Shown: piece after piece, positions 31,827 to 47,226 of the stretch
How positions within the stretch are numbered: position 1 is the stretch's first letter
Layout: each line of letters starts with the position of its first letter
Origin: Escherichia coli
Lineage (GTDB): Bacteria; Pseudomonadota; Gammaproteobacteria; Enterobacterales; Enterobacteriaceae
Reading direction: 5' to 3' (one strand)
Length of the DNA: 64,000 nt
Assembly (NCBI RefSeq): GCF_024700885.2
Contig: NZ_CP117016.1
The notes under the pieces: model-generated
Databases searched by the model: none
What the model saw: only the letters and a program-made list of their open reading frames with translations
Told to the model about the DNA's origin: nothing
Translations under genes and position numbers: made by a program

Positions 31827-31991
31827 ATGGCAAAGCCGATCATCACGCTCAATGGCCTAAAAATCGTCATTATGTTGGGAATGCTGGTCATTATTCTCTG
31901 CGGTATCCGTTTTGCCGCCGAGATCATCGTGCCGTTTATTCTCGCATTATTTATTGCTGTTATATATAACTTATTTCGCATAACACATTGA
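31827..31991 (+). pseudogene. tqsA: tqsA (AI-2 exporter) 5' fragment, truncated by island insertion
   Basis: [45 protein letters not shown] runs into island DNA (IYNLFRITH*). The continuation [11 protein letters not shown] resumes at 47227. Confidence 0.9.
31955..31963. repeat. att core copy (integrase-distal junction; I call it attL by window position)
   Basis: TGCTGTTAT, identical to 47218..47226. Confidence 0.85.
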
Positions 31992-32037
31992 TTTAATTAA
32001 ATAATTAACACCGCAAAAAGTGCCAAAAATCGCAAAA

Positions 32038-32060
32038 TGACTACACCAGTGACTACACCG
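32038..32060 (+). repeat. 23-bp arm repeat TGACTACACCAGTGACTACACCG (left arm)
   Basis: A perfect copy lies at 47068..47090 in the same orientation. It is internally a tandem GACTACACC x2. Similarity continues for about 10 more bp (TCG[G/T]TGCAC). Confidence 0.85.
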
Positions 32061-32077
32061 TTCGGTGCACTGTATGA

Positions 32078-32102
32078 AACAACGTGGAACAAATAGACAC
32101 AA
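32078..32102 (+). repeat. 10-bp-phased (A/C)ACAA array, left arm (3 units)
   Basis: AACAA at 32078 and 32088, CACAA at 32098. Confidence 0.7.
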
Positions 32103-32415
32103 GAAATATACAGGCGGATCATCTTTCCAGGGGGAAGCACACCAATTCATGAGGGGCGTTAATGTCGATATGGGGATCCCCACCTACCGGAATTTTTTTC
32201 CGGTTAAACGTTAATCAGGCTGGTGGGCTTTACCTGTTCGGTAGGTGTTATGATTATCGTAATACCTTTCCCCCAATGGGGTAAAAGCATCAACCGTAAC
32301 GAAAGTCGTTATGGTTGCCACTGATACCCCAAATTTGGGTATCACGAGTAAGCCCCAAAATCTGGGTGTTACTCTTACTACCCAAACTACGGGTAGTTTC
32401 CGTAGTTTCATGGTC

Positions 32416-32435
32416 GAGTTGCAGATCTGCAACTC
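32416..32435. repeat. Perfect 20-bp palindrome GAGTTGCAGATCTGCAACTC
   Basis: Read directly from the sequence. It lies in a non-coding 0.7-kb island end, next to three CCCAAA..GGGT dyads (about 32324-32396) and a tandem GTAGTTTC x2. Confidence 0.8.
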
Positions 32436-32689
32436 CCCCATTAACCACAGGCGAATTTCCGCCTTCGGTCATTCCTTAATCATCTGCGTAATCATAATGA
32501 TTATTCAGCAAGCGCAATTTTGCGCTTTGCTTAAAGTTCAGCGAGTTACCGCGCCGACTTCCTCAAATTGAGGTTTCCGAAAATATCAGCGGGTTAGCGA
32601 TTAAGCTGACCATTAATTAAACTGCGAAAATGTCGTAGTTGTGAGGGGTGTAGCCAACCCATTTTTGGGCCGTCGGGAATATCAACCAG

Positions 32690-32971
32690 TTACCGCCGCA
32701 ACCGCTCCGGCTTCTTCCAGTGGTACGTTATTTTCTCCTTCTCCCGATACATCTCCACGCGGCGACGGTAGGCCAGCAACTCAAGAACTCTGGTTCGTAT
32801 GTTGCGCATATCCACGCCATTAAGTTCTATACCATCACGGCGCATCACCTCAGCAACAACACGCGCATAGTTTTCGGCTGTCACGCTGTCCGGCTGCGTG
32901 GCCTGTTCGTCAGCCTGCTGGCTGATTCCGGCAACGCGGCGGATTAATCCCGTTATTTCGGCTTCTGTCAT
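32690..32971 (-). CDS. Hypothetical protein (93 aa) downstream of terL
   Basis: ATG with SD gaggt. It lies 13 nt after the TerL stop. No family was recognised. Confidence 0.6.
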   Translation of the reverse strand: MTEAEITGLIRRVAGISQQADEQATQPDSVTAENYARVVAEVMRRDGIELNGVDMRNIRTRVLELLAYRRRVEMYREKEKITYHWKKPERLRR

Positions 32972-32984
32972 GCTGCTGACCTCA

Positions 32985-34646
32985 TTACACCCCGCTAAAT
33001 TCTTCCAGTTTCTGGCGGTGGCTGTCGCTTATATCAAAAGCAAAATCCTCATGCTCTGCCTGGAATGTACCAAACGCCATCAGCGCCGCCACGCTCGGGT
33101 CTATCTTGTTCGGTGATTTTTTCTTGTTCGGCTTGATATTGGCGTTCGCGTCACTCTGCATCACGACGTTACTCATCGACCAGGACAACACCGGATCGCC
33201 ACGATGCACAATCACCCTGCGGTTAACAAAAACTTCGAACGATTTCGCCGCCGGACTGAATCTGAGGTAGGTTTGCGGGAACGGCTCCACCTCAAAACCT
33301 GCCCCCTGTAATTGCGTTCTGAGATGCGTGGCGTTCCACGTATCAAAGCCCACCAGCCTGATATTAAATTTCTCCGCGTCCTGCATGATGTCATCTCTGA
33401 TCCGGTCGTAATCAATGCAGTCGCCAGGCGTTGTGCGTATCCAGCCTGCTTTAGCCCACTGACGATAGATGGCGCGGTTTTTATTGGCGGGGTTCTGTAG
33501 CTGAAATTCCGGCAGATAGTGACGGGAAACCAGCATAATGGTTTTACCGACCGGAAAGGCATAGCACACGCTGGAAATATCGCTGGTTGATGATAAGTCC
33601 AGCCCCGCGTAACACTCCTGGCCGTGTAAATCTTCCTCCGTGAACGTTCCGGCACACTCAGCCCATGCGCCGTTACCCATCCACGGGGTAGCCCCCTGGC
33701 ACCAGATATTAAATCGCTTTGTCATCATCTCCACCCACTGCGACGGAATACCCCGCGCTTTCTGGATGGTTGAGGCCAGTTTTTCACGATCGACGGAAAC
33801 ATCAATATTAGGGTTCGCCTTTATCCACATCGCCGGATCATCAACCTCGTTTTCGTCGTCCAGTTCGTAAATCAGTACAAAAATTGAATCGTTAACCTCT
33901 TCGCCGTCCAGGATCTGGCAGCAATAATCATAGTGCTGCTTACAGGCTGAAACGACGTTGCTGCCTGATGTGGTAATGGCAAATAACAGCCCTTCGGGAC
34001 GTGCGCCCATCCCCAGCTCAAGCGCGGAATAAACGCCGTTATCGGGGTGCAAGTGGTATTCGTCCACGATGGAAAGGCTGGGGTTTGTTCCCTCGATGGT
34101 TGCCGCTTTTGCTGCCAGCGGCTTTAACAGGCTGTTGCTTTTCGGGTGTATCACCTTATGCGCCTGAATATTCACCCGCCTGCGTAACGGTCGGGATAAA
34201 AGGCACATCTGACGCGCATCATCAAAGACGATCCGCGCCTGGTCACGGCTCACCGCTGCGGTGTAGATATCCTGCTGACCGTTCTCCATAATCAGAAACC
34301 AGTTAGCCAGAATCGCGGCGGTCGTGGATTTCGCATTTTTGCGCGGCACTTCGATAAAGGCGCTCGTGTATTTGCGCCGTCCGGTGGCCTTAACCTTAAA
34401 GCCGAGGATGCACGCAAAGGCGAACTGCTGCCACGGCTCCAGCTCAATGGGTCTGCCACGCATCGGTCCTTTTACGTGCGGGCACACCCTGGAAAAGGCA
34501 ATAAACCGCTCCACAACCTCACGATCGAACGTGTAAAGGGGGCTTTTAAGGTCCGAAAAGTACCGTTTAACGGCCTGTTTCAGCCGTTTACAGGCCGGAA
34601 TTTTGCCCGTTTTTACGTCTTCTGCGTACTTATTCCAGGCGGTCAA
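32985..34646 (-). CDS. terL: Terminase large subunit (Terminase_1-type)
   Basis: 553 aa with an ATPase region (VPRKNAKST Walker A-like, IVDEYH Walker B) and a C-terminal nuclease. The TTG start overlaps the terS 3' end and has SD gagga. Confidence 0.85.
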   Translation of the reverse strand: MTAWNKYAEDVKTGKIPACKRLKQAVKRYFSDLKSPLYTFDREVVERFIAFSRVCPHVKGPMRGRPIELEPWQQFAFACILGFKVKATGRRKYTSAFIEVPRKNAKSTTAAILANWFLIMENGQQDIYTAAVSRDQARIVFDDARQMCLLSRPLRRRVNIQAHKVIHPKSNSLLKPLAAKAATIEGTNPSLSIVDEYHLHPDNGVYSALELGMGARPEGLLFAITTSGSNVVSACKQHYDYCCQILDGEEVNDSIFVLIYELDDENEVDDPAMWIKANPNIDVSVDREKLASTIQKARGIPSQWVEMMTKRFNIWCQGATPWMGNGAWAECAGTFTEEDLHGQECYAGLDLSSTSDISSVCYAFPVGKTIMLVSRHYLPEFQLQNPANKNRAIYRQWAKAGWIRTTPGDCIDYDRIRDDIMQDAEKFNIRLVGFDTWNATHLRTQLQGAGFEVEPFPQTYLRFSPAAKSFEVFVNRRVIVHRGDPVLSWSMSNVVMQSDANANIKPNKKKSPNKIDPSVAALMAFGTFQAEHEDFAFDISDSHRQKLEEFSGV

Positions 34647-34986
34647 GCTCGTCCTCTTCTTCTGTTTCCGGTGGGTTTTTACGGCGGCTTATCGGGTCAA
34701 AACCGAGCAAGGAGGCCATTTTTATCATCACCCTTTCAGCGTCTGATTTCGCGCTTAATGCGGGGTTTCTGCTCTCGCCGCCCTGACTGTTAACAATGCT
34801 GAACCCGCGCGCCGCAAGGTCTGCGACGGCTTTCCGGTAAATGGAGTAGTTGACACAATACAGTTCCAGATTGCTCCAGTCGGCGGGGGTCAGGTCTCCC
34901 CGTTCCGCAAGCTGCCGCGATTTTTCCCGCCACTGCTTCACGGCGATGTCATCCAGGTAGGCGGGGGCTTTCGGTGGTCTTGCCAT
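34630..34986 (-). CDS. terS: Terminase small subunit, P27 family
   Basis: 118 aa; MARPPKAPAYLDDIAVKQWRE...LELYCVNYSIYRKA is typical of P27-family TerS. Confidence 0.8.
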   Translation of the reverse strand: MARPPKAPAYLDDIAVKQWREKSRQLAERGDLTPADWSNLELYCVNYSIYRKAVADLAARGFSIVNSQGGESRNPALSAKSDAERVMIKMASLLGFDPISRRKNPPETEEEDELDRLE

Positions 34987-35108
34987 GCTTATTTTTCGTC
35001 AGATTATTTTTCAAAAAATTCCCGTGCATAAAAATTTGAGGAGGCGTTCGGTGCCCGGCGGGGTCGGGTTTGTCCTGAAAACGCCCCCCACCCCGTCATA
35101 CAGCCTCA

Positions 35109-35282
35109 TCAGCGATTGCGGAAACATTCCATAACCTCGCGGTCACGGTCGGTTAATCGCTTCGCTGTGATGCGTTCTGCGCGTCCTGACGCTTTATCTT
35201 TATGCCCTGTTTCCTGTGTCTTCCATGCGTCACGCTGCCTTATAAGTCCACGGATAAGGCGGTTTTGTTCCCGCTCATTCAT
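35109..35282 (-). CDS. Small hypothetical protein (57-60 aa) between HNH and terS
   Basis: This is the C-terminal part of track ORF 35109..35513. The ATG at 35282 (or 35291) overlaps the HNH stop. The rest of that ORF is out of frame inside the HNH gene. Confidence 0.4.
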   Translation of the reverse strand: MNEREQNRLIRGLIRQRDAWKTQETGHKDKASGRAERITAKRLTDRDREVMECFRNR

Positions 35283-35715
35283 CAGCGTCATACATCCAGT
35301 TATTGCGGTTAGCGGCCCGTTCTTCCTCTTCACGAAATCCACCTGCGGCACGCTTGCTTTTTGTTGCCGGATCAAGCCATTTCGTTTTCTGGTTATGACA
35401 CGCCTGGCACAATGGTTGATGGTTCCATTCGGGCCAGAAGAGAACATCATCACCGCCATTAATCGGGATAATGTGATCCACCACCACGGCGGGCGTATAT
35501 ATCCCCTTCTCAAGGCATCGCACGCATAACGGGTTTTTACTCAGATACATGGCGCGGTATTTGTCCCACTGTCTGGAATATCCACGCGCGCGGCGGTGTC
35601 CTCGTCTGGCATCCTCTGCACGCCATGCCGCCCGCCTGTGCTCCTCACACTTGCCGGATTTAACGCGCCTGTTACAGCCTGGTTCTGTGCATCGTCTTAA
35701 TGGTTGCCACGGCAT
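35275..35715 (-). CDS. HNH endonuclease (packaging-associated)
   Basis: 146 aa with Cys pairs and DHIIP...N..LCQACHNQKT, an HNH motif. It sits beside terS as in HK97-like cos phages. Confidence 0.85.
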   Translation of the reverse strand: MPWQPLRRCTEPGCNRRVKSGKCEEHRRAAWRAEDARRGHRRARGYSRQWDKYRAMYLSKNPLCVRCLEKGIYTPAVVVDHIIPINGGDDVLFWPEWNHQPLCQACHNQKTKWLDPATKSKRAAGGFREEEERAANRNNWMYDADE

Positions 35716-36011
35716 CAGTACACCCCCACATCACGGTAAGCCGTCCAGAGTGCGCCTATCGTCATGGGTACGCGTGTTTTTGCGTTATCCGCGACAATCT
35801 GGCGATTTTCATACAGGTGAGCGATAAACATCATGCAGCCAATCTTTATGGCTGGCGTGAACTCCAGCCCGTCATCAAAGCGCCTGCCTATGTGTATCTG
35901 GCACGCCTCAAGCGATGCGGCAATGTATCCGCTGATTAACTGGTCTTCATCGTCGCCATCGATGCGGCAATGGAGTTTCACTTCTTCCAGGGTGATAAGT
36001 TCTTCTGTCAT
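35715..36011 (-). CDS. gp6-like head-tail connector protein
   Basis: 98 aa. MTEELITLEEVKLHCRIDGDDEDQLISGYIAAS is the typical Phage_connect_1 N-terminus. ATGA overlap with the upstream gene. Confidence 0.75.
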   Translation of the reverse strand: MTEELITLEEVKLHCRIDGDDEDQLISGYIAASLEACQIHIGRRFDDGLEFTPAIKIGCMMFIAHLYENRQIVADNAKTRVPMTIGALWTAYRDVGVY

Positions 36012-36346
36012 TTTTCCGCGCCCTCACGACAAAGAATTTCAAGGCGTGTCCTGGCGGCATCCGGCAGCGGCTGCCCGATGATATTCAGTACACGCCCCGC
36101 CAGCGGCCCCGTACTGACCTTTATCCGGCTGGTGGCGTTGATGTCCTTCCGGTACCGTATCCAGATCCTTACGGTACCAATCGCCAGCTCTGCGCCCGAT
36201 GAAATGGCCTCCTTGCTGCTGACCATGTTCACGCTTGCCCAGAGTGTGTGACCGTCCTCCCACGTTTCGAGTATTTCGCCGGTTATATCCCTGGTCTGTT
36301 TCAGGGTCTGAATCGTTATCCTGTCACGCAGTCGCCCTATGTTCAT
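36008..36346 (-). CDS. Head-closure / head-tail adaptor protein (SPP1 gp16-like)
   Basis: The start was set at MNIGRLRDRITIQ (ATG 36346, ATGA overlap with the portal stop), giving 112 aa. Confidence 0.7.
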   Translation of the reverse strand: MNIGRLRDRITIQTLKQTRDITGEILETWEDGHTLWASVNMVSSKEAISSGAELAIGTVRIWIRYRKDINATSRIKVSTGPLAGRVLNIIGQPLPDAARTRLEILCREGAEK

Positions 36347-37554
36347 TCCGGTTTTTCTCCCTCGCTGATTTTTACTTCCTGTTTCCATGCCTGGCTGAAC
36401 TCATCACCACCATCACGCGGTGACAGACCTTCACGTTCGCGGGCTTCGTTCGGACACATAACGCCGGATTTGATGCCGCGCTCATAGGTGGCAAAGCGTT
36501 CGCCAGGTGTGGCCCGTAACAGGTCCGCGCTGTCAAACTCCACCTGATACCGGATACCAGGTACAGGCGAGGCCACCAGCAGGGCGTTTTTTATCTGCTG
36601 CTCAAAGTTCGCCAGCCACGGGCGCATCGTCATGGTGAGAAATGCGCGGCTTGCCTCGCTGAAATTGCTGTAGGTGCTGTTGCTGTATTCCTGCAAAAAA
36701 ATCGGCGAGACGTTGAACATTCGGGCGATGTCTTCAATGGTGAAGCGACGGGAGGCCAGCCATTCAGCATCCTGATTACTCATGCCCAGCTGCTGATAGC
36801 TCATACCCCCTTCAAGGATGGGCGTTTTTCCGGCGTTTCTGGCCCCTTTGTAGCGTTCCAGTGCGGCTAATGCCTGTTTGCCCTTCACGCCGTCCAGCCA
36901 TTCGCCTGACGTGATAACCCCTGCCGCCATCATGCCATCACGCATCACGCTCGCGCCGTGGCGTTGTTGGGCCAGCCCAAGCCCCAGCGATTCGCGGCAG
37001 ATGGTTACAGGTGAGCACCCCATAAAGCCGTCATCCGTGGAGTAACGAAGGTGAAGTACTTCCCACGGTAAATAGTTGCGGGTGTTTCCGGTGTAGGCGT
37101 CAGTGATGCAGTAGCGCCAGTTGTGTTCGCCTGTCTGCTCCACGTTCACCGACTGCGGCGGGTAAGGATGTAAAGCCGCCGGAAAACCATCACGCCCCCA
37201 CTGAATCACCGCATAAGCATTACCGTTTAACAGGCAGTGGCGGATCATCATTCGCTTAAACTGGTAGGGGGTTTGCCATGCGTTCGGGCGCTCGTTGAGG
37301 ATGTGATCGACCGGATGAGAATCAAGCCACTCGCGGGCCTCCTTCCCCTTCTCATTGCGTACCAGGTACAGGTAACACGGCATGGTAGCCACCGCCTCAG
37401 AGATGACCGTCACGGCGTTCATGACGGCGGGCAGTGATTCCGCTGTCCCCGATGATACGTACTCACCCGCCCCCGTGTTCGATGTGCCAGCCAGCGCCAT
37501 AAATTCATCCAGCGTCATGCTGCGCTGCTCTTTTTTTCTTCTGAAAGGCCACAT
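36343..37554 (-). CDS. Portal protein, HK97 family
   Basis: 403 aa, recognised by family-typical sequence and position. SD gggggtg. Confidence 0.85.
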   Translation of the reverse strand: MWPFRRKKEQRSMTLDEFMALAGTSNTGAGEYVSSGTAESLPAVMNAVTVISEAVATMPCYLYLVRNEKGKEAREWLDSHPVDHILNERPNAWQTPYQFKRMMIRHCLLNGNAYAVIQWGRDGFPAALHPYPPQSVNVEQTGEHNWRYCITDAYTGNTRNYLPWEVLHLRYSTDDGFMGCSPVTICRESLGLGLAQQRHGASVMRDGMMAAGVITSGEWLDGVKGKQALAALERYKGARNAGKTPILEGGMSYQQLGMSNQDAEWLASRRFTIEDIARMFNVSPIFLQEYSNSTYSNFSEASRAFLTMTMRPWLANFEQQIKNALLVASPVPGIRYQVEFDSADLLRATPGERFATYERGIKSGVMCPNEAREREGLSPRDGGDEFSQAWKQEVKISEGEKPE

Positions 37555-37555
37555 A

Positions 37556-38128
37556 TCACACCCCCGCTAAATCCACCCACCAGCGGCGATTATCCGCACG
37601 CGGCATTTTTTCGGGGTGCTGCTCATACAGGGAACGGCGGGCCAGCTCCACGCCGGAATCGGGGTAAGCCGGTACCGATGTAACGGTAATTTCGTACAGT
37701 TCCGCCACCAGCACGGTGCGCACGCATGGATCTGTTGTGGTATCCCATACATCCTTACGGGAGCGAAAGCCAAAGCTCATCCCCGAGATGTCCCCACGCT
37801 TAACCAGTTCGATAACGTCGCGCCCTGTACTGGTATCCGGTGGGGTCAGTTCAAAGCGTAACCCTGTTTCGTCCTCTTCCAGTTTCAGCGTGCCGGAACG
37901 GGTGCGCCCCAGTAACATGCTGTGGTCATGCTCATACAGGCCGCGAACGTCATTACCCGCCGCAAGCCACTCAGTAAACGCCCCCCGCTGGAATTTTTCG
38001 TAAAACTCCCCCCATAGCAGTTCTGAAAGCTTATCCCAGCGAACAACGTAGCCCGTCAGCGTACCGGCTCCGCTGGTAGTGATTTCCGATGACCGGATTT
38101 CCATACTCTTCATAATTTTTTCACCCAT
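37556..38128 (-). CDS. Prohead serine protease, HK97 (S78) family
   Basis: 190 aa (start may be 38113). EHD...LLGR and GMSFGF motifs are present. Confidence 0.85.
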   Translation of the reverse strand: MGEKIMKSMEIRSSEITTSGAGTLTGYVVRWDKLSELLWGEFYEKFQRGAFTEWLAAGNDVRGLYEHDHSMLLGRTRSGTLKLEEDETGLRFELTPPDTSTGRDVIELVKRGDISGMSFGFRSRKDVWDTTTDPCVRTVLVAELYEITVTSVPAYPDSGVELARRSLYEQHPEKMPRADNRRWWVDLAGV

Positions 38129-38137
38129 AAAACACTA

Positions 38138-38157
38138 AAGGGGCTTTTAAGCCCCTT
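38138..38157 (-). terminator. Hairpin between capsid and protease genes (possible attenuator)
   Basis: Stem aaggggctt/aagcccctt, followed on the minus strand by ttagtgtttt. Confidence 0.4.
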
Positions 38158-38167
38158 CTGTATGCTG

Positions 38168-39325
38168 TTAATCGTCGTCCTGTGGCAGTTCCAGAATCTT
38201 GATCGCGTTCGAATCCACCACGCCACCGCCTAAATATTTCTGCGTGAAAATTTTGATGAAGCCCGGCTCTGTGAGGTTGTCCGGTCTGGTGCGAACACCT
38301 GTTTCGTGATCAACAATGTAGTAACCGCGTTTGAAGTCACCCAGGGCAATAACGTTATCCGGCATAAACTCCAGATATTCGACCGGAAGGCCCAGTAACG
38401 TATCAGGATCACCCGCCTGTAAACGGTCGCGCCAGATGTAATCACCGTTCGCGTTCTTCACCTTCTGAAGTTTTGCCGCCGTCGTGGAGTTAACCACCCA
38501 GACCGCGTTTTTGCGGTATTTTTTACGTAATGCAAATTTCAGGTCGATCAGCGGGTCCGCAGATGTCCACGCCAGAGATTCGGAAGGTTTAATTACCTGC
38601 AACGTACCAAAATCACGCTCTTTGTCGTTCTTCTCTGCACGGGGTACGGATAAAAAGCCTTTTGCTTTTTTGTCACCGTCGCCCACAACCAGATCGCTTT
38701 CTTCGGTTTCCGTGAAGTTGTCGCCAATCTCGCCCGTCAGCCATGAAAGGATGTCCACATCGGAAAAATCCACGATTTCCTGCGTGGTGCGCGGGTACGC
38801 ATAGACCGGATACAGCTTAATGCTCACCTCGTTAATCTGCGGGGTGCTGGTCTGTTCGCGTGCCTTACCCTCTTCACCGTGGTTAACGGTCGCACCGCCA
38901 GCGGAAACAAGCTGCTTAAACTCGTTGCTGCTGATTTTCTTCACGGTACAGATGCGGCGCATGGTGGATTCATCCGTCAGCATTCGCATGATTTCGGTGT
39001 TCAGTTCGGGGATAACGGTATAACCACCATCAGCGGGAACGCCTGTACTTAATGCGCGGGTTTCACCTGTCAGAATGTAGTGACGTAGTTCGGCTGGGTC
39101 AGTGGTCTGACTGCTTTTACCTGGCTTGCTGCGCTCTTCGTCTGCAATGGCTTCAAGGCGGGAAATGTCTTTATCGAGGGATTCAGCTTTAGCGCGTAAT
39201 TCGTCAAATTTTGCGCCCTCAGCATCGTTAAGACTGCGGTTTTCTTTTTCCGCGTTCTCCAGCATGTCGCGCATCTGATTTTTAATGGCGGTTTTCTGCT
39301 GGCGTAATTCGATTATTCTCGGCAT
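38168..39325 (-). CDS. Major capsid protein, HK97 fold, with N-terminal delta/scaffold-like coiled coil
   Basis: 385 aa with a charged helical N-terminus (about 100 aa) followed by an HK97-family capsid body. Confidence 0.88.
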   Translation of the reverse strand: MPRIIELRQQKTAIKNQMRDMLENAEKENRSLNDAEGAKFDELRAKAESLDKDISRLEAIADEERSKPGKSSQTTDPAELRHYILTGETRALSTGVPADGGYTVIPELNTEIMRMLTDESTMRRICTVKKISSNEFKQLVSAGGATVNHGEEGKAREQTSTPQINEVSIKLYPVYAYPRTTQEIVDFSDVDILSWLTGEIGDNFTETEESDLVVGDGDKKAKGFLSVPRAEKNDKERDFGTLQVIKPSESLAWTSADPLIDLKFALRKKYRKNAVWVVNSTTAAKLQKVKNANGDYIWRDRLQAGDPDTLLGLPVEYLEFMPDNVIALGDFKRGYYIVDHETGVRTRPDNLTEPGFIKIFTQKYLGGGVVDSNAIKILELPQDDD

Positions 39326-39565: not shown

Positions 39566-39583
39566 ATAATTTACAAAACATGA

Positions 39584-39606: not shown

Positions 39607-39612
39607 GTGTGA

Positions 39613-39894: not shown

Positions 39895-39897
39895 CCC

Positions 39898-40308: not shown

Positions 40309-40583
40309 GATTCCACCTCTCCGGTTTTAACGTTGATGGTTGTTACCTGTTCCGCTTCGGCAATCTCCCGCTCTGTCAGCGTGGCAAAATTTGCCGCCGT
40401 CGTGGTCATGAATGCGCTTATCAGTTTGGGATGTGCTTTCGCGTATCCTTCCCCCGCGTGGCGGTCTATCGTTCTGATTGCCACCTTTAAAGCGTGCTCT
40501 GTCATGTCTAACGCGCGATATTTCGGTTCTGTTCTGTCTCTGCGTTTTTTGAGTGATTTATTAAATTTCCCTGAAGTGTGCAT
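40305..40583 (-). CDS. Hypothetical protein (92 aa)
   Basis: ATG at 40583. Its stop overlaps the ssb start (ATGA). Confidence 0.5.
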   Translation of the reverse strand: MHTSGKFNKSLKKRRDRTEPKYRALDMTEHALKVAIRTIDRHAGEGYAKAHPKLISAFMTTTAANFATLTEREIAEAEQVTTINVKTGEVES

Positions 40584-40632
40584 ATTTATTTTTACCCCCT
40601 CGTTTAAAAAGTTTTGAGTTGTGCCTCCCCTT

Positions 40633-40855
40633 GTCTACCTTATCTACCTTAGTGGCCCTCATACCAGTAATGGCGCGGCTTTCAGCGGGGTAGAGTGCTT
40701 TTATCCACTATCTACCCCGTGTCTACCTCCCTGTCTGATTCAGGTAAAATCAGGTAGAGAGGGTAGATAGTGGGTAGACAGTAAAAAAAGGTTATCTACC
40801 TAACTTAATGCACTGAATTAAATGTATTTTTCTTTACTCAGGTAGACAGGGTAGA
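40633..40855. repeat. Iteron cluster / candidate island replication origin
   Basis: 11 copies of the hexamer GGTAGA/TCTACC. TCTACC starts at 40634, 40644, 40711, 40722 and 40795. GGTAGA starts at 40689, 40753, 40762, 40773, 40841 and 40850. They flank an AT-rich stretch (40801-40840) directly downstream of the primase stop. Confidence 0.75.
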
Positions 40856-40871
40856 CAGCAATTACAAAAAA

Positions 40872-42626
40872 TTATAAAAACGCGTCGCACTCGTCTGTTG
40901 TTATTGCGTTAGTCTGCGTTACTCCCTTAACTTTCCGCGTAATATATTCATGTCCGTAAACTTTCGCGGCTGGCTTCATAGCCTTGCCAAAGTCATTTAC
41001 GTTTAGCGGTTTGCTCCTGCCTGCGTACGCCATAAACGCCAGATAGACGCGGTAAAGGCTGTTTCTGGTCGTGTACTTCACTGAATCGCCACCGCCGCCC
41101 ATCATCAGGCCGCGTGCTTCCTCCAGAAAATTCAGGAACTGGCAAAACTCAATAACCGGATCCGTCTGTTGCTTTATTGCCAGAGCTTCATCACCGTCAC
41201 GCTGTTCCAGTAGTAAAGCCCGTGCCTTCTCAGGGTCGGTAAAGTTCGCCAGCAATCGGCGGATAATGACAGGGATTTCAGCCGCGATCTTTTCCGGTAG
41301 CTCCCTGTCTTTTTCGGCCTCACTGACGATATTGTCGAAACGGAAAATCACGCGACGACGTGCCACACCTCCGGCCCGTTCGGTGAATATCATCGGGTTA
41401 TTGTTGGTCGCCAGCACCACCGCCCTGATTACCGCCGTGAAACGCTTTTCGTATTTCGGGTTAATTTCCACGGGGTCACCGCCCGTGATTTTCTTGATGC
41501 CCGTTCCTTCGCCTGTATATTTCGGCTGGTCAGCCAGGACGATAAGACGACTCCCGACAACCTGCGCACGTCCACCAGCATCATCAAGCGATGTCATTTC
41601 AGCGCTTACCGTGTTCTGTTTCCCTGCCAGAAGGCTGGCTATGTGTGTGAATGTACTTTTACCGCTCCCGCCGTCTCCGGTGGCCTCAATAAACATCTGC
41701 CAGTCGTACCGGTTCGCCATAATCATGTACAGCGCGGCACATATACGCATCATCTTGCGCGGGTCTTTTCCGGCTGCGTGCTCAAGCCATTTATGAAAGT
41801 TTGGCGCGTTATCGCGGATGTTCTCCCCTGGTGCTGGTGGCGTGTACTCAATGCCGTTGTGCGTGGTGATCCAGTTCTCCGGCGTGTGCGGGGAAAATTC
41901 CCCCGTTTTCAGGTCAAGCGCACCATTGGCGAACGGCAACAAATCGCCGGACGGCTCGCCCATTGGTTCGGCAATAACTTTTAACGCTTCCACGGCGTTA
42001 TTGATTACGCGCTTGCTGAAAGTGGCCCTGTGCTCTGAATAGATCGCCACCATTTCGCGGCTAAGTTCCATTGTGCTGACCGGACACCATACCCCGCCGC
42101 GCCATACGTGAACGATTTCACTTTCAGGATGTACGCAAACGCCATCAAAGCGATCGGCAAGCAGTTGCGCGCGCTCACTGTCCGCCATCTGCGAAAGTTG
42201 CGCCTTTTGCTTTACCGGAAGCTCAATGACCAGACCATCAGAAAGATTCTGGCGCTCACGGGCCAGATATTCGCGCCAGTTCTCCACCTTCTGACCGTGC
42301 ATACCATCAGGGTAAAAATTTGCATCCTGTACGCCTGCCGCCGCCAGCTTCTGACCAATCGCCTTTATCATTACTGGCGCAAGATATCCGGCCCTGAATA
42401 TGCGCACGGATTTTCTGCCTTCCGGCACAATTTGCAGCTTATCCAGTTCGGATAACTGCTGCTCCCCAAGCCACACAGGAGGCTCATTATCTCCGGCCAT
42501 ACGCGCGTCATGTTCCTGCCATTGTTTTGCGTGTGACCAGGCATCACTACCCGCAAAAATAATGACTTCTGTTTCTTTGTGTTTTATGCCGCGTGACTGC
42601 TGTTTTACGTTCGGTGCCAGTTTCAT
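40872..42626 (-). CDS. P4-family primase/helicase (pri-rep)
   Basis: 584 aa with Walker A GDGGSGKST and Walker B LIVLADQP. The C-terminal architecture is D5/P4-alpha-like. Confidence 0.82.
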   Translation of the reverse strand: MKLAPNVKQQSRGIKHKETEVIIFAGSDAWSHAKQWQEHDARMAGDNEPPVWLGEQQLSELDKLQIVPEGRKSVRIFRAGYLAPVMIKAIGQKLAAAGVQDANFYPDGMHGQKVENWREYLARERQNLSDGLVIELPVKQKAQLSQMADSERAQLLADRFDGVCVHPESEIVHVWRGGVWCPVSTMELSREMVAIYSEHRATFSKRVINNAVEALKVIAEPMGEPSGDLLPFANGALDLKTGEFSPHTPENWITTHNGIEYTPPAPGENIRDNAPNFHKWLEHAAGKDPRKMMRICAALYMIMANRYDWQMFIEATGDGGSGKSTFTHIASLLAGKQNTVSAEMTSLDDAGGRAQVVGSRLIVLADQPKYTGEGTGIKKITGGDPVEINPKYEKRFTAVIRAVVLATNNNPMIFTERAGGVARRRVIFRFDNIVSEAEKDRELPEKIAAEIPVIIRRLLANFTDPEKARALLLEQRDGDEALAIKQQTDPVIEFCQFLNFLEEARGLMMGGGGDSVKYTTRNSLYRVYLAFMAYAGRSKPLNVNDFGKAMKPAAKVYGHEYITRKVKGVTQTNAITTDECDAFL

Positions 42627-42922
42627 TTTTTACCCCTGAATCCGTTAATCATGGTTTTCAGCTTCTGGATGTTTGCCCGTGCCCTGGCGTTGCTGGTGGA
42701 CACGTTATGCGGCGCGGTCTGTACCAGAGAAAAATCACGCCGGAACTGATAAACAGGCATCACGCAATCATATTCGTAACCTTCACGGCGGTAGGTTACG
42801 CGCCGTTCTTCCACGCCCTTAATCATTACCGTGCCGCCGTACTGGTCGCGGTAAATATCGCCGCGCGTAAATTTAGGGTGAGTGTTGCCACTGGCAGTTA
42901 AGCCAGAATATTTAAGTTTCAT
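42623..42922 (-). CDS. Hypothetical protein (99 aa)
   Basis: SD ggaga. ATGA overlap with the primase start. Confidence 0.55.
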   Translation of the reverse strand: MKLKYSGLTASGNTHPKFTRGDIYRDQYGGTVMIKGVEERRVTYRREGYEYDCVMPVYQFRRDFSLVQTAPHNVSTSNARARANIQKLKTMINGFRGKK

Positions 42923-42927
42923 TATTT

Positions 42928-43161
42928 TTATTCTCCGGTGTGCTGTTCTTTATATCTGTCGTGCAATAGATCTATTTCTTGCAGTTCCATTATTACAGGC
43001 TCAAGAAGCGTTATTAATGCCGTGGCAATTCTTGATTTTTGTTTGTCGCGTTCATTGTCGCCAAGTGTTTCAAGCCATATGCGCAATATTTCCAGCATGT
43101 TTTCACTGTGAGAAAGTGCAAGAAATGCGCGGTCTATTGTTTCGTGGTAAATATCACGCAT
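42928..43161 (-). CDS. Hypothetical protein (77 aa)
   Basis: ATG with SD gagga. Part of the packed operon. Confidence 0.5.
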   Translation of the reverse strand: MRDIYHETIDRAFLALSHSENMLEILRIWLETLGDNERDKQKSRIATALITLLEPVIMELQEIDLLHDRYKEQHTGE

Positions 43162-43387
43162 GGCTTACATCCTCAGGAAATTTTCTTCTATAACGCGCCT
43201 CTGCCACATATTCCGCATAATCGGCGGCGATATTCAGTACATCAAGCCCCGTTGATTTATATTCTCTCGTGGAAAGTAAGAAAAAAGCCGCTCTAATAAG
43301 TTCTGGCATTGACGAAAGCGCATCAGCCGCATCATCAGGAACGCCGGAAAATTCCTGTTTCAGGGAATTAAAACGATCATCACGCAT
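43154..43387 (-). CDS. Hypothetical protein (77 aa)
   Basis: ATG with SD gggggg. It has 8-nt overlaps with both neighbouring genes. Confidence 0.5.
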   Translation of the reverse strand: MRDDRFNSLKQEFSGVPDDAADALSSMPELIRAAFFLLSTREYKSTGLDVLNIAADYAEYVAEARYRRKFPEDVSHA

Positions 43388-43745
43388 GTTTACCCCCCTG
43401 AATGACCTGATAACCGCAACTGGTCAGCAACTCGATAAATTCCGGCAGTGTGCCGAAACAGCAATCATCACGCAGCCGTTCACAGGATACCTCGACGCCG
43501 TTTTCGTAGTGACTCACCATACATCCGGTAAAATGCAGATCATCATCGTGATGGCTCGTTGACGGCTTAATCAGTCGCGCACGTTCCGCCAGTTCCAGCA
43601 ATGCTTCAACGCTTCCGGCAATTGCACCATCCGGCAGGTGATAATTACGCACTATGCGCCCGTTCTCCACATTGACCAGCAACTGCCCGGTAAATTTCTC
43701 ATCAAACTGAATGCTGTTAAGGTCAGAAATTGACAGATTATGCAT
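43380..43745 (-). CDS. Hypothetical protein (121 aa)
   Basis: The start was moved to MHNLSISDL (ATG 43745), preceded by a strong SD aggagg. Confidence 0.55.
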   Translation of the reverse strand: MHNLSISDLNSIQFDEKFTGQLLVNVENGRIVRNYHLPDGAIAGSVEALLELAERARLIKPSTSHHDDDLHFTGCMVSHYENGVEVSCERLRDDCCFGTLPEFIELLTSCGYQVIQGGKHA

Positions 43746-43962
43746 GGTGCACCTCCTGCACATCAGCCATGATAATTTTTCCGGCCTTATCCAGTGCCTG
43801 ATCGGCTTTTAGCTGCACAAATGCTAAATAATGGAAGATGCATTCTGATTCTCTGGCTGCGTGTTTATGCGCCCTGTCAGCAATAACAGAAATATCAATA
43901 AGCGCGTGCATCAGCGTAGTGAGCGCGGCGGCGGCTGCGTCCGGTGTGGTTTTATTGCACAT
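43738..43962 (-). CDS. Hypothetical protein (74 aa)
   Basis: The start was moved to MCNKTTPD (ATG 43962), preceded by SD ggagggg. Confidence 0.5.
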   Translation of the reverse strand: MCNKTTPDAAAAALTTLMHALIDISVIADRAHKHAARESECIFHYLAFVQLKADQALDKAGKIIMADVQEVHHA

Positions 43963-44182
43963 GTACCCCTCCGCATTTTTTTTCGTTAGAAATAAGCGTT
44001 CTTCTTTCCTGTTCATCGCTCAGGAATACGCAGACCTCACCGCTAAGGCGTTTAAGTAAGCCGATGATTGCCCCTGATTCGCTGTCGGTCATCATGCCAG
44101 GGTAATCCTCTGCCAGTGCGCAAATAACTTCGATTTGGTGGGCGCGTTCTGCTGCCTGTTGTAGTGTGATTTCCTGGCTCAT
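43952..44182 (-). CDS. Hypothetical protein (76 aa)
   Basis: ATGA overlap with the icd-like stop. Confidence 0.5.
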   Translation of the reverse strand: MSQEITLQQAAERAHQIEVICALAEDYPGMMTDSESGAIIGLLKRLSGEVCVFLSDEQERRTLISNEKKCGGVHVQ

Positions 44183-44379
44183 AAGCCTACCCCCTGACGA
44201 ATACGGGCAGCAAATACCATCACGCAGCCAGCCGGAGATTGCTGGCGTGCTTCCTGTTCGCTGGTGGCCTCAATGGTAATCACGCGCGGTTGTGCCGTGC
44301 TCAGGGCGATAAAACGCCAGATGTATTTATTCAGGTTGTGCGAGTCCCGCCCTTGCGGGTGTGTGGTATGATTTCTCAT
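44179..44379 (-). CDS. Icd-like host cell-division inhibitor (66 aa)
   Basis: This is the C-terminal 66 codons of the 340-aa track ORF. ATG at 44379 with SD gaggt. YIWRFIAL...ATSEQEARQ...VFAARIR resembles Icd-like proteins of P4-type elements, from memory. Confidence 0.55.
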   Translation of the reverse strand: MRNHTTHPQGRDSHNLNKYIWRFIALSTAQPRVITIEATSEQEARQQSPAGCVMVFAARIRQGVGL

Positions 44380-44475
44380 AGCTACCTCGATACTTTCGCT
44401 ATCGTTGGTGGTTAGAAGCCCGGTTAGTGTTAGCGCACTGCCGGGTTTCGTCGTTTCTGCACCTTGCGCCAACAA

Positions 44476-44578: not shown

Positions 44579-44758
44579 ATGGCGACAAAAGCGGTAAACG
44601 CAAAATCACAAACCGTTGCGGCAAGGGTTCCGCATGAAGTTATGAACAATGTTGAGGCGGTAAAAATGCCTGGCGAAAGTACGGGGCAATTTGTTACTGC
44701 GGCATTAAAACGAGAAGTTGAATATCGCCAGCGGCGCAAGGCCAAAGAACCAGAGTAA
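44579..44758 (+). CDS. Ribbon-helix-helix (Arc/CopG-like) DNA-binding protein, 59 aa, candidate island repressor
   Basis: Hand-translated as MATKAVNAKSQTVAARVPHEVMNNVEAVKMPGESTGQFVTAALKREVEYRQRRKAKEPE*. SD gagggg. It has a beta-strand-helix-helix pattern. It is below the ORF-track cutoff and is one of only two plus-strand genes in the island. Confidence 0.5.
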   Translation: MATKAVNAKSQTVAARVPHEVMNNVEAVKMPGESTGQFVTAALKREVEYRQRRKAKEPE

Positions 44759-44800
44759 TCACCATCAGCGCCGTGGTGTAAGGTATTACGGCGCATTGCT

Positions 44801-44989
44801 ATGCAGGACAACACAATGACCGATAAAGAATTGACCAAAACATTATCACCGGCACGGAAAAGACGGCGCAGAAAGATAGAGCATGAATCAGAAAGATTCG
44901 CGCCATGTGCTTTTGCCCTTGAGCAATTCCTTAAAGAGTACAGGGAAAAGCGCTCATTGCAGGTATGGCAACGAACTGAACCAGACTGA
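44801..44989 (+). CDS. Hypothetical basic protein (57-62 aa)
   Basis: Downstream of the RHH gene and before the plus-strand terminator. Contains an ARKRRRRK stretch. The start may be 44816. Confidence 0.4.
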   Translation: MQDNTMTDKELTKTLSPARKRRRRKIEHESERFAPCAFALEQFLKEYREKRSLQVWQRTEPD

Positions 44990-45084
44990 TTGCATTGCCC
45001 ACCAGCCTGATAACGGCTATCATCCCCGTGCTTATGTTTGGGATCACACACACAAACGGCGCAGCGGGTTATCTGTTCAGAAAG

Positions 45085-45112
45085 GCGGCTCCATTTCGGG
45101 GCCGCTTTTTTT
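45085..45112 (+). terminator. Rho-independent terminator of the rightward RHH unit
   Basis: Stem gcggctcc/ggggccgc (8 bp, one G-U pair) followed by 7 T. Confidence 0.7.
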
Positions 45113-45258
45113 ATACCTGAAAAACCCCAATTTTGTTGTTTTTCAGTTTCACCAGGGCGAACGAATCCCCGCCCACGTTCTGGCGTATATTCAATCTTCA
45201 TGGTTATAGCTCTGTGTTCAGATGATTGATGTGTGGCGGCTGCGTGCCGCCAGCGTGA

Positions 45259-45447
45259 TTAATGAACTGCCTTGCAGCTATCCTTCCAGGCCAGAACCTC
45301 GGATAAAGACCAGCCAACGGAACGACCGCCAAGTTTACGACGTGATGGGAATTGTCCGGCCTTTTCCAGGCGGTAGCGACACGTACGGCTAAGGCCGGTT
45401 AGTTTTTCGCATTCTTTTTCACGTATAAACCGATCAGTGCTTAACAC
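45259..45447 (-). CDS. alpA: AlpA-family regulator / excisionase-type HTH
   Basis: FIREKECEKLTGLSRTCRYRLEKAGQFPSRRKLGGRSVGWSLSEVLAW is the typical AlpA/Phage_AlpA motif. The favoured start is the GTG at 45447, 5 nt after SD aagggggg. The track ORF extends to a TTG at 45528. Confidence 0.8.
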   Translation of the reverse strand: MLSTDRFIREKECEKLTGLSRTCRYRLEKAGQFPSRRKLGGRSVGWSLSEVLAWKDSCKAVH

Positions 45448-45720
45448 TATTGCCCCCCTTTCGTTTCTTAAAGAGTCATCAGGTGTCTTATTGTGTCGTA
45501 TTGTTCCCGCTAGAGTGATGAATGGCAAATACTGAGGATGTATGATTTACAGAAAATGAAACAGTAAGAATAAAATTTTTTAAATTCATGTTAATACAAA
45601 GGCATAAAATATTGTTCCATGCCTTTTTTCTCGCTCTTTAAAGAGTGATTCGCTAGTGTACAAAAAACCAGTAACGCATTAAAAATCAGCTACTTATAAA
45701 TCCGTACGCTTTTTCGCCTC

Positions 45721-45765
45721 TTGTTCGTAGTTGTTCCACATTGTTGCTCATTGTTGCACGTTGTA
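45721..45765 (-). repeat. Five TTGTT/TTGTA units at exact 10-bp spacing (inverse orientation of the GAACAA arrays), int-alpA intergenic
   Basis: Units start at 45721, 45731, 45741, 45751 and 45761. Confidence 0.8.
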
Positions 45766-45812
45766 TCTGTTCGCATATCCAGTATGCGCATACTGAAAAA
45801 ACACGAAAAAAA

Positions 45813-47042
45813 TTATTTTCTTCTGGCTACGGGTAGCGTGGTTACGTTTTCATGTGTTCCCGCCAGTATCCCTAACCGCTCCGTCCACATATCCAGCGCA
45901 TTGCGTTTCGCATCCAGATAACGGGAATGATTATAAACTCGCTGCATTCCTGGCATCTGGTGGCCTGTAAGCTGCTCCACGACATGCGGATCAACGCCTA
46001 AATCGTTCAGCATGGTTGTAAAGGTGCGCCGGATGTCATGCAGTGACCAGTGAGGGTGATTAAGCCTCCTGTACGCTAATCTTCCATACTGCGATACGCT
46101 GGCCTCCTGTTTCACTTCCCCCAGCAATAAGCCCGTGTGCCTGTTCTGCTCCACCAGCTGCGTGACGAACGGCAGGATCGCTTCCGGTATGGGCCGGAAT
46201 ATTGCGACCTTCGTTTTGCTGTGCTCCTTCGGAACGGTCCATAGCATTTCCGTAAAATCCCACTCCCCGATCTCCGATAACCTCAGTTCTACCGTTCTGG
46301 CTCCGAAGACAATCAGGAGGCGGATTAACGCGACGTAGTAAGGGGAGAATATTTTTTTGTCCAGTGCCTGCAATAATTCGCCAAGTTCTTTGTTACTTAA
46401 GACACGTTCGCTTATATCCGGTTTTTTCCCAACGTCCGCAACGTTCAGATCGTCCAGAACGTTGCTGATTGCATAGCGCCGCCTACGGCAGAACTTAAGC
46501 GCCTGTTTGCACGCCTGTAGCACGAATCCGGCAGTAACAGGCGTTCGCTTTGCCACCTGGTCAAAACAGGCCAGCCAGTGCCGTAGCTCGCATTTATCCA
46601 GCGGCATAGCACCAATCTGCTGTATTACGTGATTATTAAGTCGCCTTTTCAGGGCGATATAATCCACGCGGTTTTCCTTTACGTAATACTCAAGCCAGTA
46701 GGTGAGCGCATCGCCAACCGTTACGGGCTTTAACGCTTCCTGTACGGTGTAATTCATCTCATGACGTGGATTTTTCCCCTCAGCCAGCCATGTGCGACAC
46801 TGTGCGGCTTTTTCCCTGGCTGCTTTCAGGCTCAGATCAGGATAACTTCCCAGCTTAATGCGTTCGGGTCGTGTCTCCCTTCCCGTTCCGGCCCTGTATG
46901 TGAAATACCAGGTCAATTTCCCTGATGTTAAATATTTCACGCTCAGGTTTCCGCCATCACTATAAAACGTGTTTTTCTCCGCTGGCTTACCATGAAGTTT
47001 CCTTAGCAAGGTATCGCTCAGTTTGTTCATTGCTCTGCTCAC
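45813..47042 (-). CDS. int: P4-type tyrosine integrase (DUF4102 arm-binding N-terminus + catalytic core)
   Basis: 409 aa, with either a GTG at 47042 or an ATG at 47030 (MNKLSDTLLRKL). The N-terminus is GKLTWYFTYR...LGSYPDLSLKAAR. Catalytic motifs HDIRRT and Y in VYNHSRY are present. Confidence 0.9.
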   Translation of the reverse strand: MSRAMNKLSDTLLRKLHGKPAEKNTFYSDGGNLSVKYLTSGKLTWYFTYRAGTGRETRPERIKLGSYPDLSLKAAREKAAQCRTWLAEGKNPRHEMNYTVQEALKPVTVGDALTYWLEYYVKENRVDYIALKRRLNNHVIQQIGAMPLDKCELRHWLACFDQVAKRTPVTAGFVLQACKQALKFCRRRRYAISNVLDDLNVADVGKKPDISERVLSNKELGELLQALDKKIFSPYYVALIRLLIVFGARTVELRLSEIGEWDFTEMLWTVPKEHSKTKVAIFRPIPEAILPFVTQLVEQNRHTGLLLGEVKQEASVSQYGRLAYRRLNHPHWSLHDIRRTFTTMLNDLGVDPHVVEQLTGHQMPGMQRVYNHSRYLDAKRNALDMWTERLGILAGTHENVTTLPVARRK

Positions 47043-47067
47043 GTTTTACCCCCTCTTTACGAAAAAG

Positions 47068-47090
47068 TGACTACACCAGTGACTACACCG
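47068..47090 (+). repeat. 23-bp arm repeat TGACTACACCAGTGACTACACCG (right arm)
   Basis: Perfect copy of 32038..32060, in the same orientation. Confidence 0.85.
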
Positions 47091-47108
47091 ATCGTTGCAC
47101 AAAGGGCT

Positions 47109-47132
47109 ACAACGTGAAACAAGCTGGAACAA
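47109..47132 (+). repeat. 10-bp-phased ACAA array, right arm (3 units, a 4th at +12)
   Basis: ACAA at 47109, 47119 and 47129, and another at 47141. Confidence 0.7.
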
Positions 47133-47217
47133 GGAAAATCACAAATCTATTGATAATCAAAAACATAATGCACAGCCTGAAACATTATGAAACAGCAAAA
47201 AACACTAAATGATAAAA

Positions 47218-47226
47218 TGCTGTTAT
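47218..47226. repeat. att core copy (integrase-proximal junction; I call it attR by window position)
   Basis: TGCTGTTAT, identical to 31955..31963. Confidence 0.85.

Follow-up and report, generated by a model that had tools for sequence, protein, structure and literature searches.

The question raised by this locus is whether a block of phage-like genes that interrupts tqsA, the gene of an autoinducer-2 (AI-2) transporter of Escherichia coli, is a defective prophage or a satellite that moves with the help of other phages. The window, i.e., the whole stretch of 64,000 nucleotides (nt) that was analysed (contig NZ_CP117016.1 of assembly GCF_024700885.2), carries at positions 31955-47226 an insert of 15,272 bp, which lies inside tqsA and is flanked by a 9-bp target duplication, TGCTGTTAT. 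This insert, referred to here as the tqsA element, is very probably an intact capsid-forming phage-inducible chromosomal island (cf-PICI) of the lineage of EcCIEDL933, inserted by a tyrosine integrase at the 9-bp core in tqsA. By analogy with that prototype, it most likely builds its own small capsids, packages only itself, and takes its tails from a helper phage.

Insertion Site and Boundaries

The boundaries of the element were established by the reconstruction of the empty site. For this purpose, the 400 bp that precede the insert, with one copy of the repeat at their end, were joined to the 400 bp that follow it, and the resulting 800-bp query was recovered without interruption, identical at 800 of 800 positions, in strain 1190. 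An uninterrupted empty tqsA site was found, at a coverage of at least 80%, in 5165 of the 5426 complete E. coli genomes. Joining positions 31827-31963 to 47227-48124 also gives back a TqsA reading frame of 344 amino acids (aa). As the empty-site join works in both ways, the insert is a discrete element of 15,272 bp with a 9-bp target duplication, which bears out the precise direct-repeat ends and the location in tqsA that an original prediction, made from the letters of the window without database searches, had proposed.

The number of copies of TGCTGTTAT is, taken alone, weak evidence, given that the window holds three copies against an expected 0.46, and three were reached in one of 100 shuffles. 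Two of these copies are the ends of the element, and the third, at 53959-53967, is located in the core chromosome, far outside the element, and is taken as a chance occurrence.

A stretch of 23,272 bp around the element is identical to the chromosome of E. coli strain MLI114 (NZ_CP117013.1), and, in the annotation of that strain, the remainder of the window belongs to the core chromosome close to the replication terminus, with ydeE-mdtJ on one side and pntB-ydgA on the other. The MLI114 chromosome also has a second, partial match to the element outside the window, which is probably another PICI-type island. A different arrangement of the site is seen in strain CFSAN004176 (NZ_CP014583.1, 20264-20660), where the match to the 800-bp query ends at base 382 and tqsA has an internal deletion that starts approximately 10-18 bp before the attachment core. 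This deletion could be the scar of an imprecise excision. The strain has no different insert in tqsA, and no larger parent prophage came to light in it.

Head and Packaging Module

The element carries a complete HK97-type head and packaging set, as the original prediction had held, and every gene so named passes the curated cut-offs of Pfam, which apply to all of the Pfam assignments given here. In the order of transcription, the capsid gene is followed by those of the protease, the portal, the head completion protein, the gp6-like adaptor, the HNH endonuclease, a 60-aa open reading frame (ORF), TerS, TerL, and a 93-aa ORF (Table 1). A comparison of coordinates places this order in agreement with the one published for proteobacterial cf-PICIs, i.e., capsid, protease, portal, connectors, and hnh-terS-terL (Alqurainy et al., bioRxiv 10.1101/2022.09.08.507074). 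Most of the genes of this operon overlap or abut, with overlaps of 4, 4, 1, 17, and 17 nt. The translational coupling claimed in the original prediction holds in this head operon. A caveat to its description of the genes as intact is the truncation of the gene downstream of alpA.

The head and packaging block (window positions 32678-39611) is 97.4% identical to that of EcCIEDL933 over 6.9 kb of nucleotide sequence. TerS and the 60-aa ORF are identical in the two elements, as is AlpA, and the other head and packaging proteins are 96-99% identical, so that the direct comparison, with 96-100% protein identity across the set, upholds the likeness to the EDL933 prototype that had been suggested beforehand. 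For the major capsid protein, 382 of the 385 residues are identical to those of PDB 9GYI, in which the T=4 capsid of EcCIEDL933, 47.5 nm in size and holding approximately 15.5 kb, was solved at 3.2 Å. The protein keeps the maturation motif STGVPAD (SxGxxAD), and the start of the mature form is predicted at S93.

In EcCIEDL933, int, alpA, and rep are accompanied by all of the genes for capsid formation and packaging, and tail genes are missing (Alqurainy et al., bioRxiv 10.1101/2022.09.08.507074). When its head and packaging genes are knocked out, the transfer of the island is abolished and the titre of the helper is unaffected, and when the capsid or the terminase of the helper is knocked out, the transfer of the island continues, although it stops when the knockouts affect the tail of the helper (gp10, gp14) (bioRxiv 10.1101/2022.09.08.507074). 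In the case of gene 1792, the mutation results in a severe reduction of transfer (Alqurainy et al., bioRxiv 10.1101/2022.09.08.507074), and the 60-aa ORF of the tqsA element is probably the homologue of this gene, given its place when genes are counted from capsid gene 1786.

The cos site probably lies in the 122-bp gap upstream of terS, since the linear record of vB_KppS-Ant, which provides the layout used here as an analogy, starts 22 nt before its terS. The same gap is near-identical in EcCIEDL933, with one substitution and a 1-nt difference in length. The record itself (LR881103.1, "Escherichia phage vB_KppS-Ant", 1-16548), of 16.5 kb, was deposited as an induced phage and has the layout of a cf-PICI, with no tail module. 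Its genes are arranged in the order terS, terL, int, primase, capsid, protease, portal, connectors, and HNH, and it ends just after HNH and a small ORF. A 765-aa gene that follows terL in this record is annotated as a tail tape measure protein, and may be a mis-named accessory gene in a variable region.

Class Membership

All of the 11 core genes of cf-PICIs are present in the element at full length, i.e., int, alpA, primase-replicase, capsid, protease, portal, head closure, adaptor, HNH, TerS, and TerL. A PICI-type half with int, AlpA, and the primase, organised in one direction, is thus combined with the element's own head set and its own HNH, TerS, and TerL, with no tail or holin gene, and the length of 15,272 bp, together with site-specific integration, corresponds to what is described for the class (approximately 15 kb, or roughly a third of the genome of a helper). 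The integrase, AlpA, SSB, and a primase of its own, which had also been named in the original prediction, are confirmed by Pfam and PHROG, and the iterons of the putative origin by the clustering of octamers described below. Boundaries, gene content, intact frames, iterons, and near-identity to characterised proteins are direct observations on the DNA.

Among the ORFs of the element, Pfam, PHROGs, NCBIfam, and PADLOC gave no match to a tail, holin, endolysin, or defence family. The absence of tail and lysis genes had been claimed beforehand, with a profile search recommended as the check, and that search (Pfam, PHROGs, NCBIfam) found none. There are also no convincing membrane-spanning segments in the element: across the small ORFs, hydropathy over 19 residues peaks at 1.73, and the segment concerned includes His and Asp. 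A temperate HK97-like prophage would have a tail tube, a tape measure, a baseplate or tip, fibres, and a lysis cassette, and none of these is found within the 15.3 kb.

In the SatelliteFinder scheme, genes such as the portal, TerL, and the connectors separate the cfPICI from the PICI, and tail and holin genes are forbidden (de Sousa et al. 2023, PMC10085698). Judged from its list of components, the element would be a cfPICI of "Type A", with no departure seen from the definition of the family. This type was found only in Proteobacteria, in a survey that detected cfPICIs in 13% of the genomes of Enterobacteriaceae (de Sousa et al. 2023, PMC10085698).

Integration Module and Mosaic Origin

EcCIEDL933, which has a published size of 15.4-15.5 kb compared with the 15.3 kb of the tqsA element, is located between roxA and phoQ in the chromosome of E. 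coli O157:H7 EDL933. Its site is the roxA(ycfD)-phoQ intergenic region, with the core GGACATATTT, while that of the element is tqsA, with the core TGCTGTTAT. The repeat read at the ends of EcCIEDL933 is the one listed for EcCICFT073 at ycfD-phoQ (Fillol-Salom et al. 2018, PMC6092414, Table S1). The tqsA site, on the other hand, is known from two classical PICIs, EcCI042 (11 kb) and EcCIK1516 (11.4 kb), both of which have the core ATAACAGCA (Fillol-Salom et al. 2018, PMC6092414, Table S1).

The integrase is identical to that of EcCI042 at 405 of 409 residues (99%) and to that of EcCIEDL933 (locus 681-1910) at 373 of 409 (91%), yet this last pair serves different cores and sites. Of the 36 substitutions that separate the element from EcCIEDL933, 17 fall in residues 1-60, i.e., the arm-binding domain, which fits the difference in the flanks of the arm sites, GTGACTACACC in the element and mostly TTAACTACACC in EcCIEDL933. 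The motif GACTACACC, which presumably represents the arm-type binding sites of the integrase, has four copies in the whole window, with a tandem pair just within either end of the element and all four on the plus strand. The arm far from int is almost identical to that of EcCI042 for approximately 330 bp, and the attachment arms of EcCIEDL933 are also conserved.

The AlpA regulator was left out of the Pfam scan and was identified by PHROG, with matches to excisionase and transcriptional-regulator families, and by its RefSeq accession, which it shares with the AlpA of both EcCIEDL933 and EcCI042 (WP_000953272.1). In EcCIEDL933, helper-dependent induction requires alpA (Alqurainy et al., bioRxiv 10.1101/2022.09.08.507074).

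Outside the head block, nucleotide identity to EcCIEDL933 is 94% in int-alpA, 93% in SSB-PerC, and 89% in DUF4222 and the start of the primase. EcCI042 has in common with the element the tqsA site, the core, the orientation, the arrangement of the truncated gene, ylcI, and the icd-like gene, and the positions of DUF4222, SSB, and PerC. It differs in its RepA-type helicase and, in the place of the head and terminase set, it has a homologue of the lambda-type capsid, a head decoration gene, and three further ORFs, one of which, of 144 aa, may be an Rpp-like packaging redirector, as suggested by the published length of Rpp. The element is a mosaic that combines an integration module of the EcCI042 type with a primase module of the P4 family and a head module of the EcCIEDL933 type.

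The novelty implied by the original prediction is not borne out, as publications already cover the family, its mechanism, the structure of the capsid, and the attachment site in tqsA, including the 9-bp core. That prediction had also stated that, should the element prove identical to a characterised one, the novelty would be lost and the functional call would stand, and this is what happened, module by module. Islands of 15, 16, and 11 kb in E. coli tqsA appear in the accessible part of the TIGER study, where they are not classed as satellites (Mageeney et al. 2020, PMC7192596), and tqsA was included by Bobay et al. among the genes disrupted by prophage integration. The element is one more mosaic of published modules in an already known family, to which it adds little.

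Replication Module

All of the genes of the element but one are on the minus strand, the exception being the YlcI/YnfO ORF. The early region is transcribed in the order int, alpA, the truncated gene, the Icd-like gene, five small ORFs, DUF4222, primase-replicase, a 92-aa ORF, SSB, and PerC. The primase-replicase scores 109.1 bits against TIGR01613, the P4-family primase C-terminal domain, for which the cut-off is 108.7, and the Pri-Rep proteins of PICIs are reported to differ in sequence from P4 alpha (Fillol-Salom et al., PMC6092414). The replicase of EcCIEDL933 is of the DUF927 type, and only residues 1-163 of the primase of the element match it (82%), with D5_N and DUF5906 beyond this point.

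Of the 12 octamers of the form GGTAGAYA in the whole window, nine are concentrated in a 288-bp gap just downstream of the primase gene. Given its repeats, the region at 40632-40857 is a putative replication origin.

Proposed Cycle

Induction, excision, capsid size, the position of cos, and the source of the tails are taken here by analogy with the characterised elements. A helper phage would turn on alpA, after which Int would excise the island and tqsA would be restored, and the primase-replicase would amplify the island, starting at the iteron origin beside the primase gene. The late operon would then provide a 47-nm, T=4 capsid of the HK97 fold, made from the capsid, protease, and portal of the island, and HNH, TerS, and TerL would cut and package unit-length island DNA (approximately 15 kb), with the cos site probably lying immediately upstream of terS. 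The filled head would be completed by the adaptor and the head closure proteins, and would become infective only once joined to the tail of a helper siphophage.

The adaptor and connector proteins of EcCIEDL933 determine which tails can be used. Because its adaptor is 99% and its head closure protein 96% identical to those of EcCIEDL933, the element is predicted to have the same tail partners, of the HK106 type.

Alternative Explanations

Several points weigh against the interpretation of the element as an intact and mobile cf-PICI. Only 149 codons are left of the gene downstream of alpA, compared with 247 in EcCIEDL933, and RefSeq treats it as a pseudogene. The replication module is unlike that of the prototype, so that its functional call comes solely from the domain content and the iterons. 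The placement of cos depends on the layout of one database record, that of vB_KppS-Ant. There is no helper prophage within the window, where the flanks of the element are prophage-free in the MLI114 annotation, and many identical copies are found at similar chromosomal positions, which may reflect clonal inheritance instead of recent transfer. The element might instead be a cf-PICI that has kept its structure and lost its capacity for mobilisation in this host, due to the replication module, the truncated gene, or the lack of a matching helper, and is only inherited vertically. Part of the early region is, like the replicase, different from the tested prototype, the identical copies come from related clinical strains, and none of the 17 prophages resident in EDL933 induced EcCIEDL933 (bioRxiv 10.1101/2022.09.08.507074). 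This explanation is nevertheless unlikely. The same truncated arrangement is found in EcCI042, a described PICI, and is therefore a shared, stable feature of the backbone and not the decay of a single copy; the gene downstream of alpA is also one of the four regions that differ between two other cf-PICIs (He et al., bioRxiv 10.1101/2025.02.11.637232). In addition, the D5_N, DUF5906, and P4-primase domains of the primase are complete, with cognate iterons adjoining, and 196 genomes carry at least 80% of the replication and early module, pieces of which recombine with RepA-type and DUF927-type replicases.

The truncated gene would also fit a deletion remnant, in which a full HK97-like prophage has lost its tail and lysis genes and persists as immobile debris, and the head genes are indeed phage-derived and HK97-like. 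This explanation is very improbable. The early region (AlpA, Icd-like, DUF4222, primase-replicase, SSB, PerC) is of the PICI and not of the prophage type, with one direction of transcription, and all of the head and packaging genes are intact, most of them overlapping or abutting. All of the 25 best-matching genomes carry the element at the same length of 15,272 bp and at 100% identity (to one decimal), and none of them has a larger parent. In addition, the integrase and the site belong to an 11-kb classical PICI, and the prototype with the same head module is experimentally mobile. A further alternative is a classical PICI, or a P4-like satellite, which would remodel the capsid of the helper and build none of its own. 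The integrase, AlpA, attachment site, and early genes common to EcCI042 would agree with this, as would the P4-family C-terminal domain of the primase, and in its tqsA site, its core, and an integrase 99% identical to that of EcCI042, the element does coincide with a classical PICI. Classical Gram-negative PICIs, however, have no portal, TerL, or connectors and depend on the capsid and the terminase of the helper, with redirection by Rpp, whereas the element has a portal, TerL, an adaptor, and a head closure protein. Its portal, protease, capsid, adaptor, head closure, HNH, and TerL are the markers by which SatelliteFinder distinguishes the cfPICI from the PICI, and the region of EcCI042 with the lambda-type capsid homologue, the decoration gene, and the three ORFs is replaced in the element. 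No ORF of the element matched a family named after the Sid, Psu, or Delta of P4 in Pfam, PHROGs, and NCBIfam at the thresholds used, the presence of such models in each library being unconfirmed. The idea of a satellite without a capsid of its own is thus scarcely credible, and the distinctions that the original prediction had drawn from both P4 and the classical PICIs are in line with these results. An intact cf-PICI of the EcCIEDL933 lineage is the reading adopted in what follows.

Distribution and Significance

Of the 5426 complete E. coli genomes, 158 (approximately 3%) carry at least 80% of the element, which would there inactivate the gene of the AI-2 exporter TqsA, and 246 have the int-tqsA junction. 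If all of the 158 copies are in tqsA, approximately two thirds of the occupied sites would carry the element, and the rest would carry other elements with the same integrase. A search with the capsid in one genome per species returned Shigella flexneri at 98% and Rosenbergiella, Citrobacter, Erwinia, and Gilliamella at 66-74%, i.e., only relatives that were to be expected in Enterobacterales and Orbaceae; the hosts reported for cf-PICIs include enterobacteria and Orbaceae (Alqurainy et al., bioRxiv 10.1101/2022.09.08.507074). No close copy was found in the phage collection, where the best match reaches 77-79% identity across 13% of the query, and there is therefore no virome evidence of packaging for this exact element.

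The cf-PICIs build their own capsids, release tail-less heads filled with DNA, and accept the tails of different phages, a mechanism that is thought to explain their spread across species. The tqsA element indicates that the EDL933-type head module also travels on a backbone that targets tqsA. For annotation, the region is to be described as a cf-PICI satellite and not as a defective prophage.

Features of the Element

The coordinates, strands, and bases of the assignments are collected in Table 1.

Table 1. Features of the tqsA element and its insertion site, in window positions; identities are to the EcCIEDL933 protein.
Feature	Position	Strand	Basis or remark
tqsA 5' fragment (AI-2 transporter gene), cut by the insert	31827-31963	+	Join restores TqsA; RefSeq partial gene
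Attachment (att) core copy TGCTGTTAT, end far from int	31955-31963	+	Reverse complement of ATAACAGCA, the core listed for EcCI042/EcCIK1516
Conserved non-coding attachment arm, with tandem putative arm-type sites GACTACACC at 32039 and 32051	31964-32290		Conservation; motif count
Three 17-mer copies, consensus GGTAACTGGTTGATATT, one preceded by a short hairpin	32534-32694	-	Repeat search
93-aa gene, phrog_1561, last of the operon	32690-32971	-	87% identical; PHROG function unknown
Large terminase TerL	32985-34646	-	Pfam TerL_ATPase and TerL_nuclease; 98.6%
Small terminase TerS, P27 family	34630-34986	-	Pfam Terminase_4; 100% identical
122-bp gap upstream of terS, candidate cos site	34987-35108	-	Layout of the vB_KppS-Ant record
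60-aa ORF between HNH and TerS	35109-35291	-	100% identical
HNH endonuclease, needed for HK97-type cos packaging	35275-35715	-	Pfam HNH; 99.3%
Head-tail adaptor, gp6-like (PHROG Ad1)	35715-36011	-	Pfam Phage_connect_1; phrog_40; 99.0%
Head closure/head completion protein (PHROG Hc1)	36008-36346	-	Pfam Phage_HCP; phrog_25; 96.4%
Portal protein	36343-37554	-	Pfam Phage_portal, E 6e-90; 99.0% identical
Prohead serine protease S78	37556-38128	-	Pfam Peptidase_S78; 97.4% identical
HK97-fold major capsid protein, N-terminal scaffold-like domain	38168-39325	-	Pfam Phage_capsid; 99.2% identical
PerC-family transcriptional activator, accessory gene	39613-39885	-	Pfam PerC, E 5e-43; 86.5% identical
Single-stranded DNA-binding protein SSB	39898-40308	-	Pfam SSB; 98.5% identical
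92-aa ORF, phrog_1231	40305-40583	-	89% identical over 81 aa
Candidate iteron-type replication origin, nine GGTAGAYA octamers in both orientations	40632-40857		Motif count; repeat families D1-D5, I1-I5
Primase-replicase, 584 aa	40872-42626	-	D5_N, DUF5906, Pox_D5; P4-family primase C-terminal domain
DUF4222 protein	42623-42922	-	Pfam; 80% identical
Five small ORFs (77, 77, 121, 74, 76 aa)	42928-44182	-	Only function-unknown PHROG families
Icd-like cell-division-inhibitor homologue	44179-44379	-	RefSeq name; phrog_6196
YlcI/YnfO-family ORF	44579-44758	+	RefSeq, PHROG; without counterpart in EcCIEDL933, same place in EcCI042
Truncated gene downstream of alpA, RefSeq pseudogene	44754-45201	-	149 of 247 codons (EcCIEDL933)
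AlpA regulator	45259-45447	-	RefSeq WP_000953272.1; phrog_2790
Tyrosine integrase	45813-47042	-	Pfam Arm-DNA-bind_3 and Phage_integrase
Two tandem putative arm-type sites GACTACACC, int-proximal arm	47069-47089	+	Repeat and motif search
att core copy TGCTGTTAT, int-proximal end	47218-47226	+	Repeat search
tqsA 3' fragment	47227-48124	+	RefSeq annotation; join restores TqsA

Terminal Repeats, Small Genes, and Candidate Regulatory Elements

At the end far from int, the 93-aa gene that closes the operon has a counterpart of 93 aa at the same position in EcCI042. Its identification as Rpp was rejected, as the published Rpp proteins have 144-153 aa. The GGTAACTGGTTGATATT 17-mers that follow this gene mostly have GGCGC before them, and some copies are also preceded by a hairpin, the stem of which is variable in sequence. 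EcCIEDL933 has five 17-mers of this type (locus 15108-15503) at the same place, after the last gene of the operon, where the element has three, and no further copies with up to four mismatches were found on the minus strand of the window. The array is possibly a packaging or regulatory site. When it was compared by eye to lambda cosN, approximately 8 of 14 bases agreed, which is unconvincing. In the same non-coding island end, positions 32277-32444 contain nested imperfect inverted repeats, with arms of 33, 26, and 19 nt, and approximately 90 bp of this block are missing from both EcCIEDL933 and EcCI042.

In the early region, the five small ORFs at 42928-44182 have no match in NCBIfam or PADLOC, and three of them are without a homologue in EcCIEDL933. 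In the element as a whole, seven small ORFs match only PHROG families of unknown function.

Compared with Rfam, the element gave a single match, under the threshold, to the SymR antitoxin RNA, with 33 bits compared to a gathering score of 61 (E 0.006). This segment of 73 nt, at 44380-44452 on the plus strand, folds as two strong hairpins (-35.1 kcal/mol, z -4.9), and is located directly upstream of the start codon of the Icd-like gene, which is on the opposite strand, and upstream of ylcI/ynfO, which is on the same strand. It may serve to regulate the cell-division inhibitor in antisense, or may be nothing more than a structured leader.

A broader and rather doubtful possibility joins these observations to the mosaic structure. 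In this scenario, a classical PICI backbone of the EcCI042 type in tqsA would have traded, in a module swap at a single site, the genes that redirect the helper capsid for an EcCIEDL933-type head module, and the 17-mer array and the symR-like RNA antisense to the icd-like leader would be undescribed cis-regulatory or packaging elements. If the module swap did take place, the classical and the capsid-forming PICIs would make up one recombining pool, and the export of AI-2 through TqsA would be dependent on the excision of a satellite.

Finally, strong terminator-like hairpins with T-rich tails are found on the minus strand at 38137-38158, between the capsid and the protease genes, and at 39589-39606, just after perC. 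They suggest a separate promoter for the capsid operon in 39326-39588, and an attenuation of transcription after the capsid gene.

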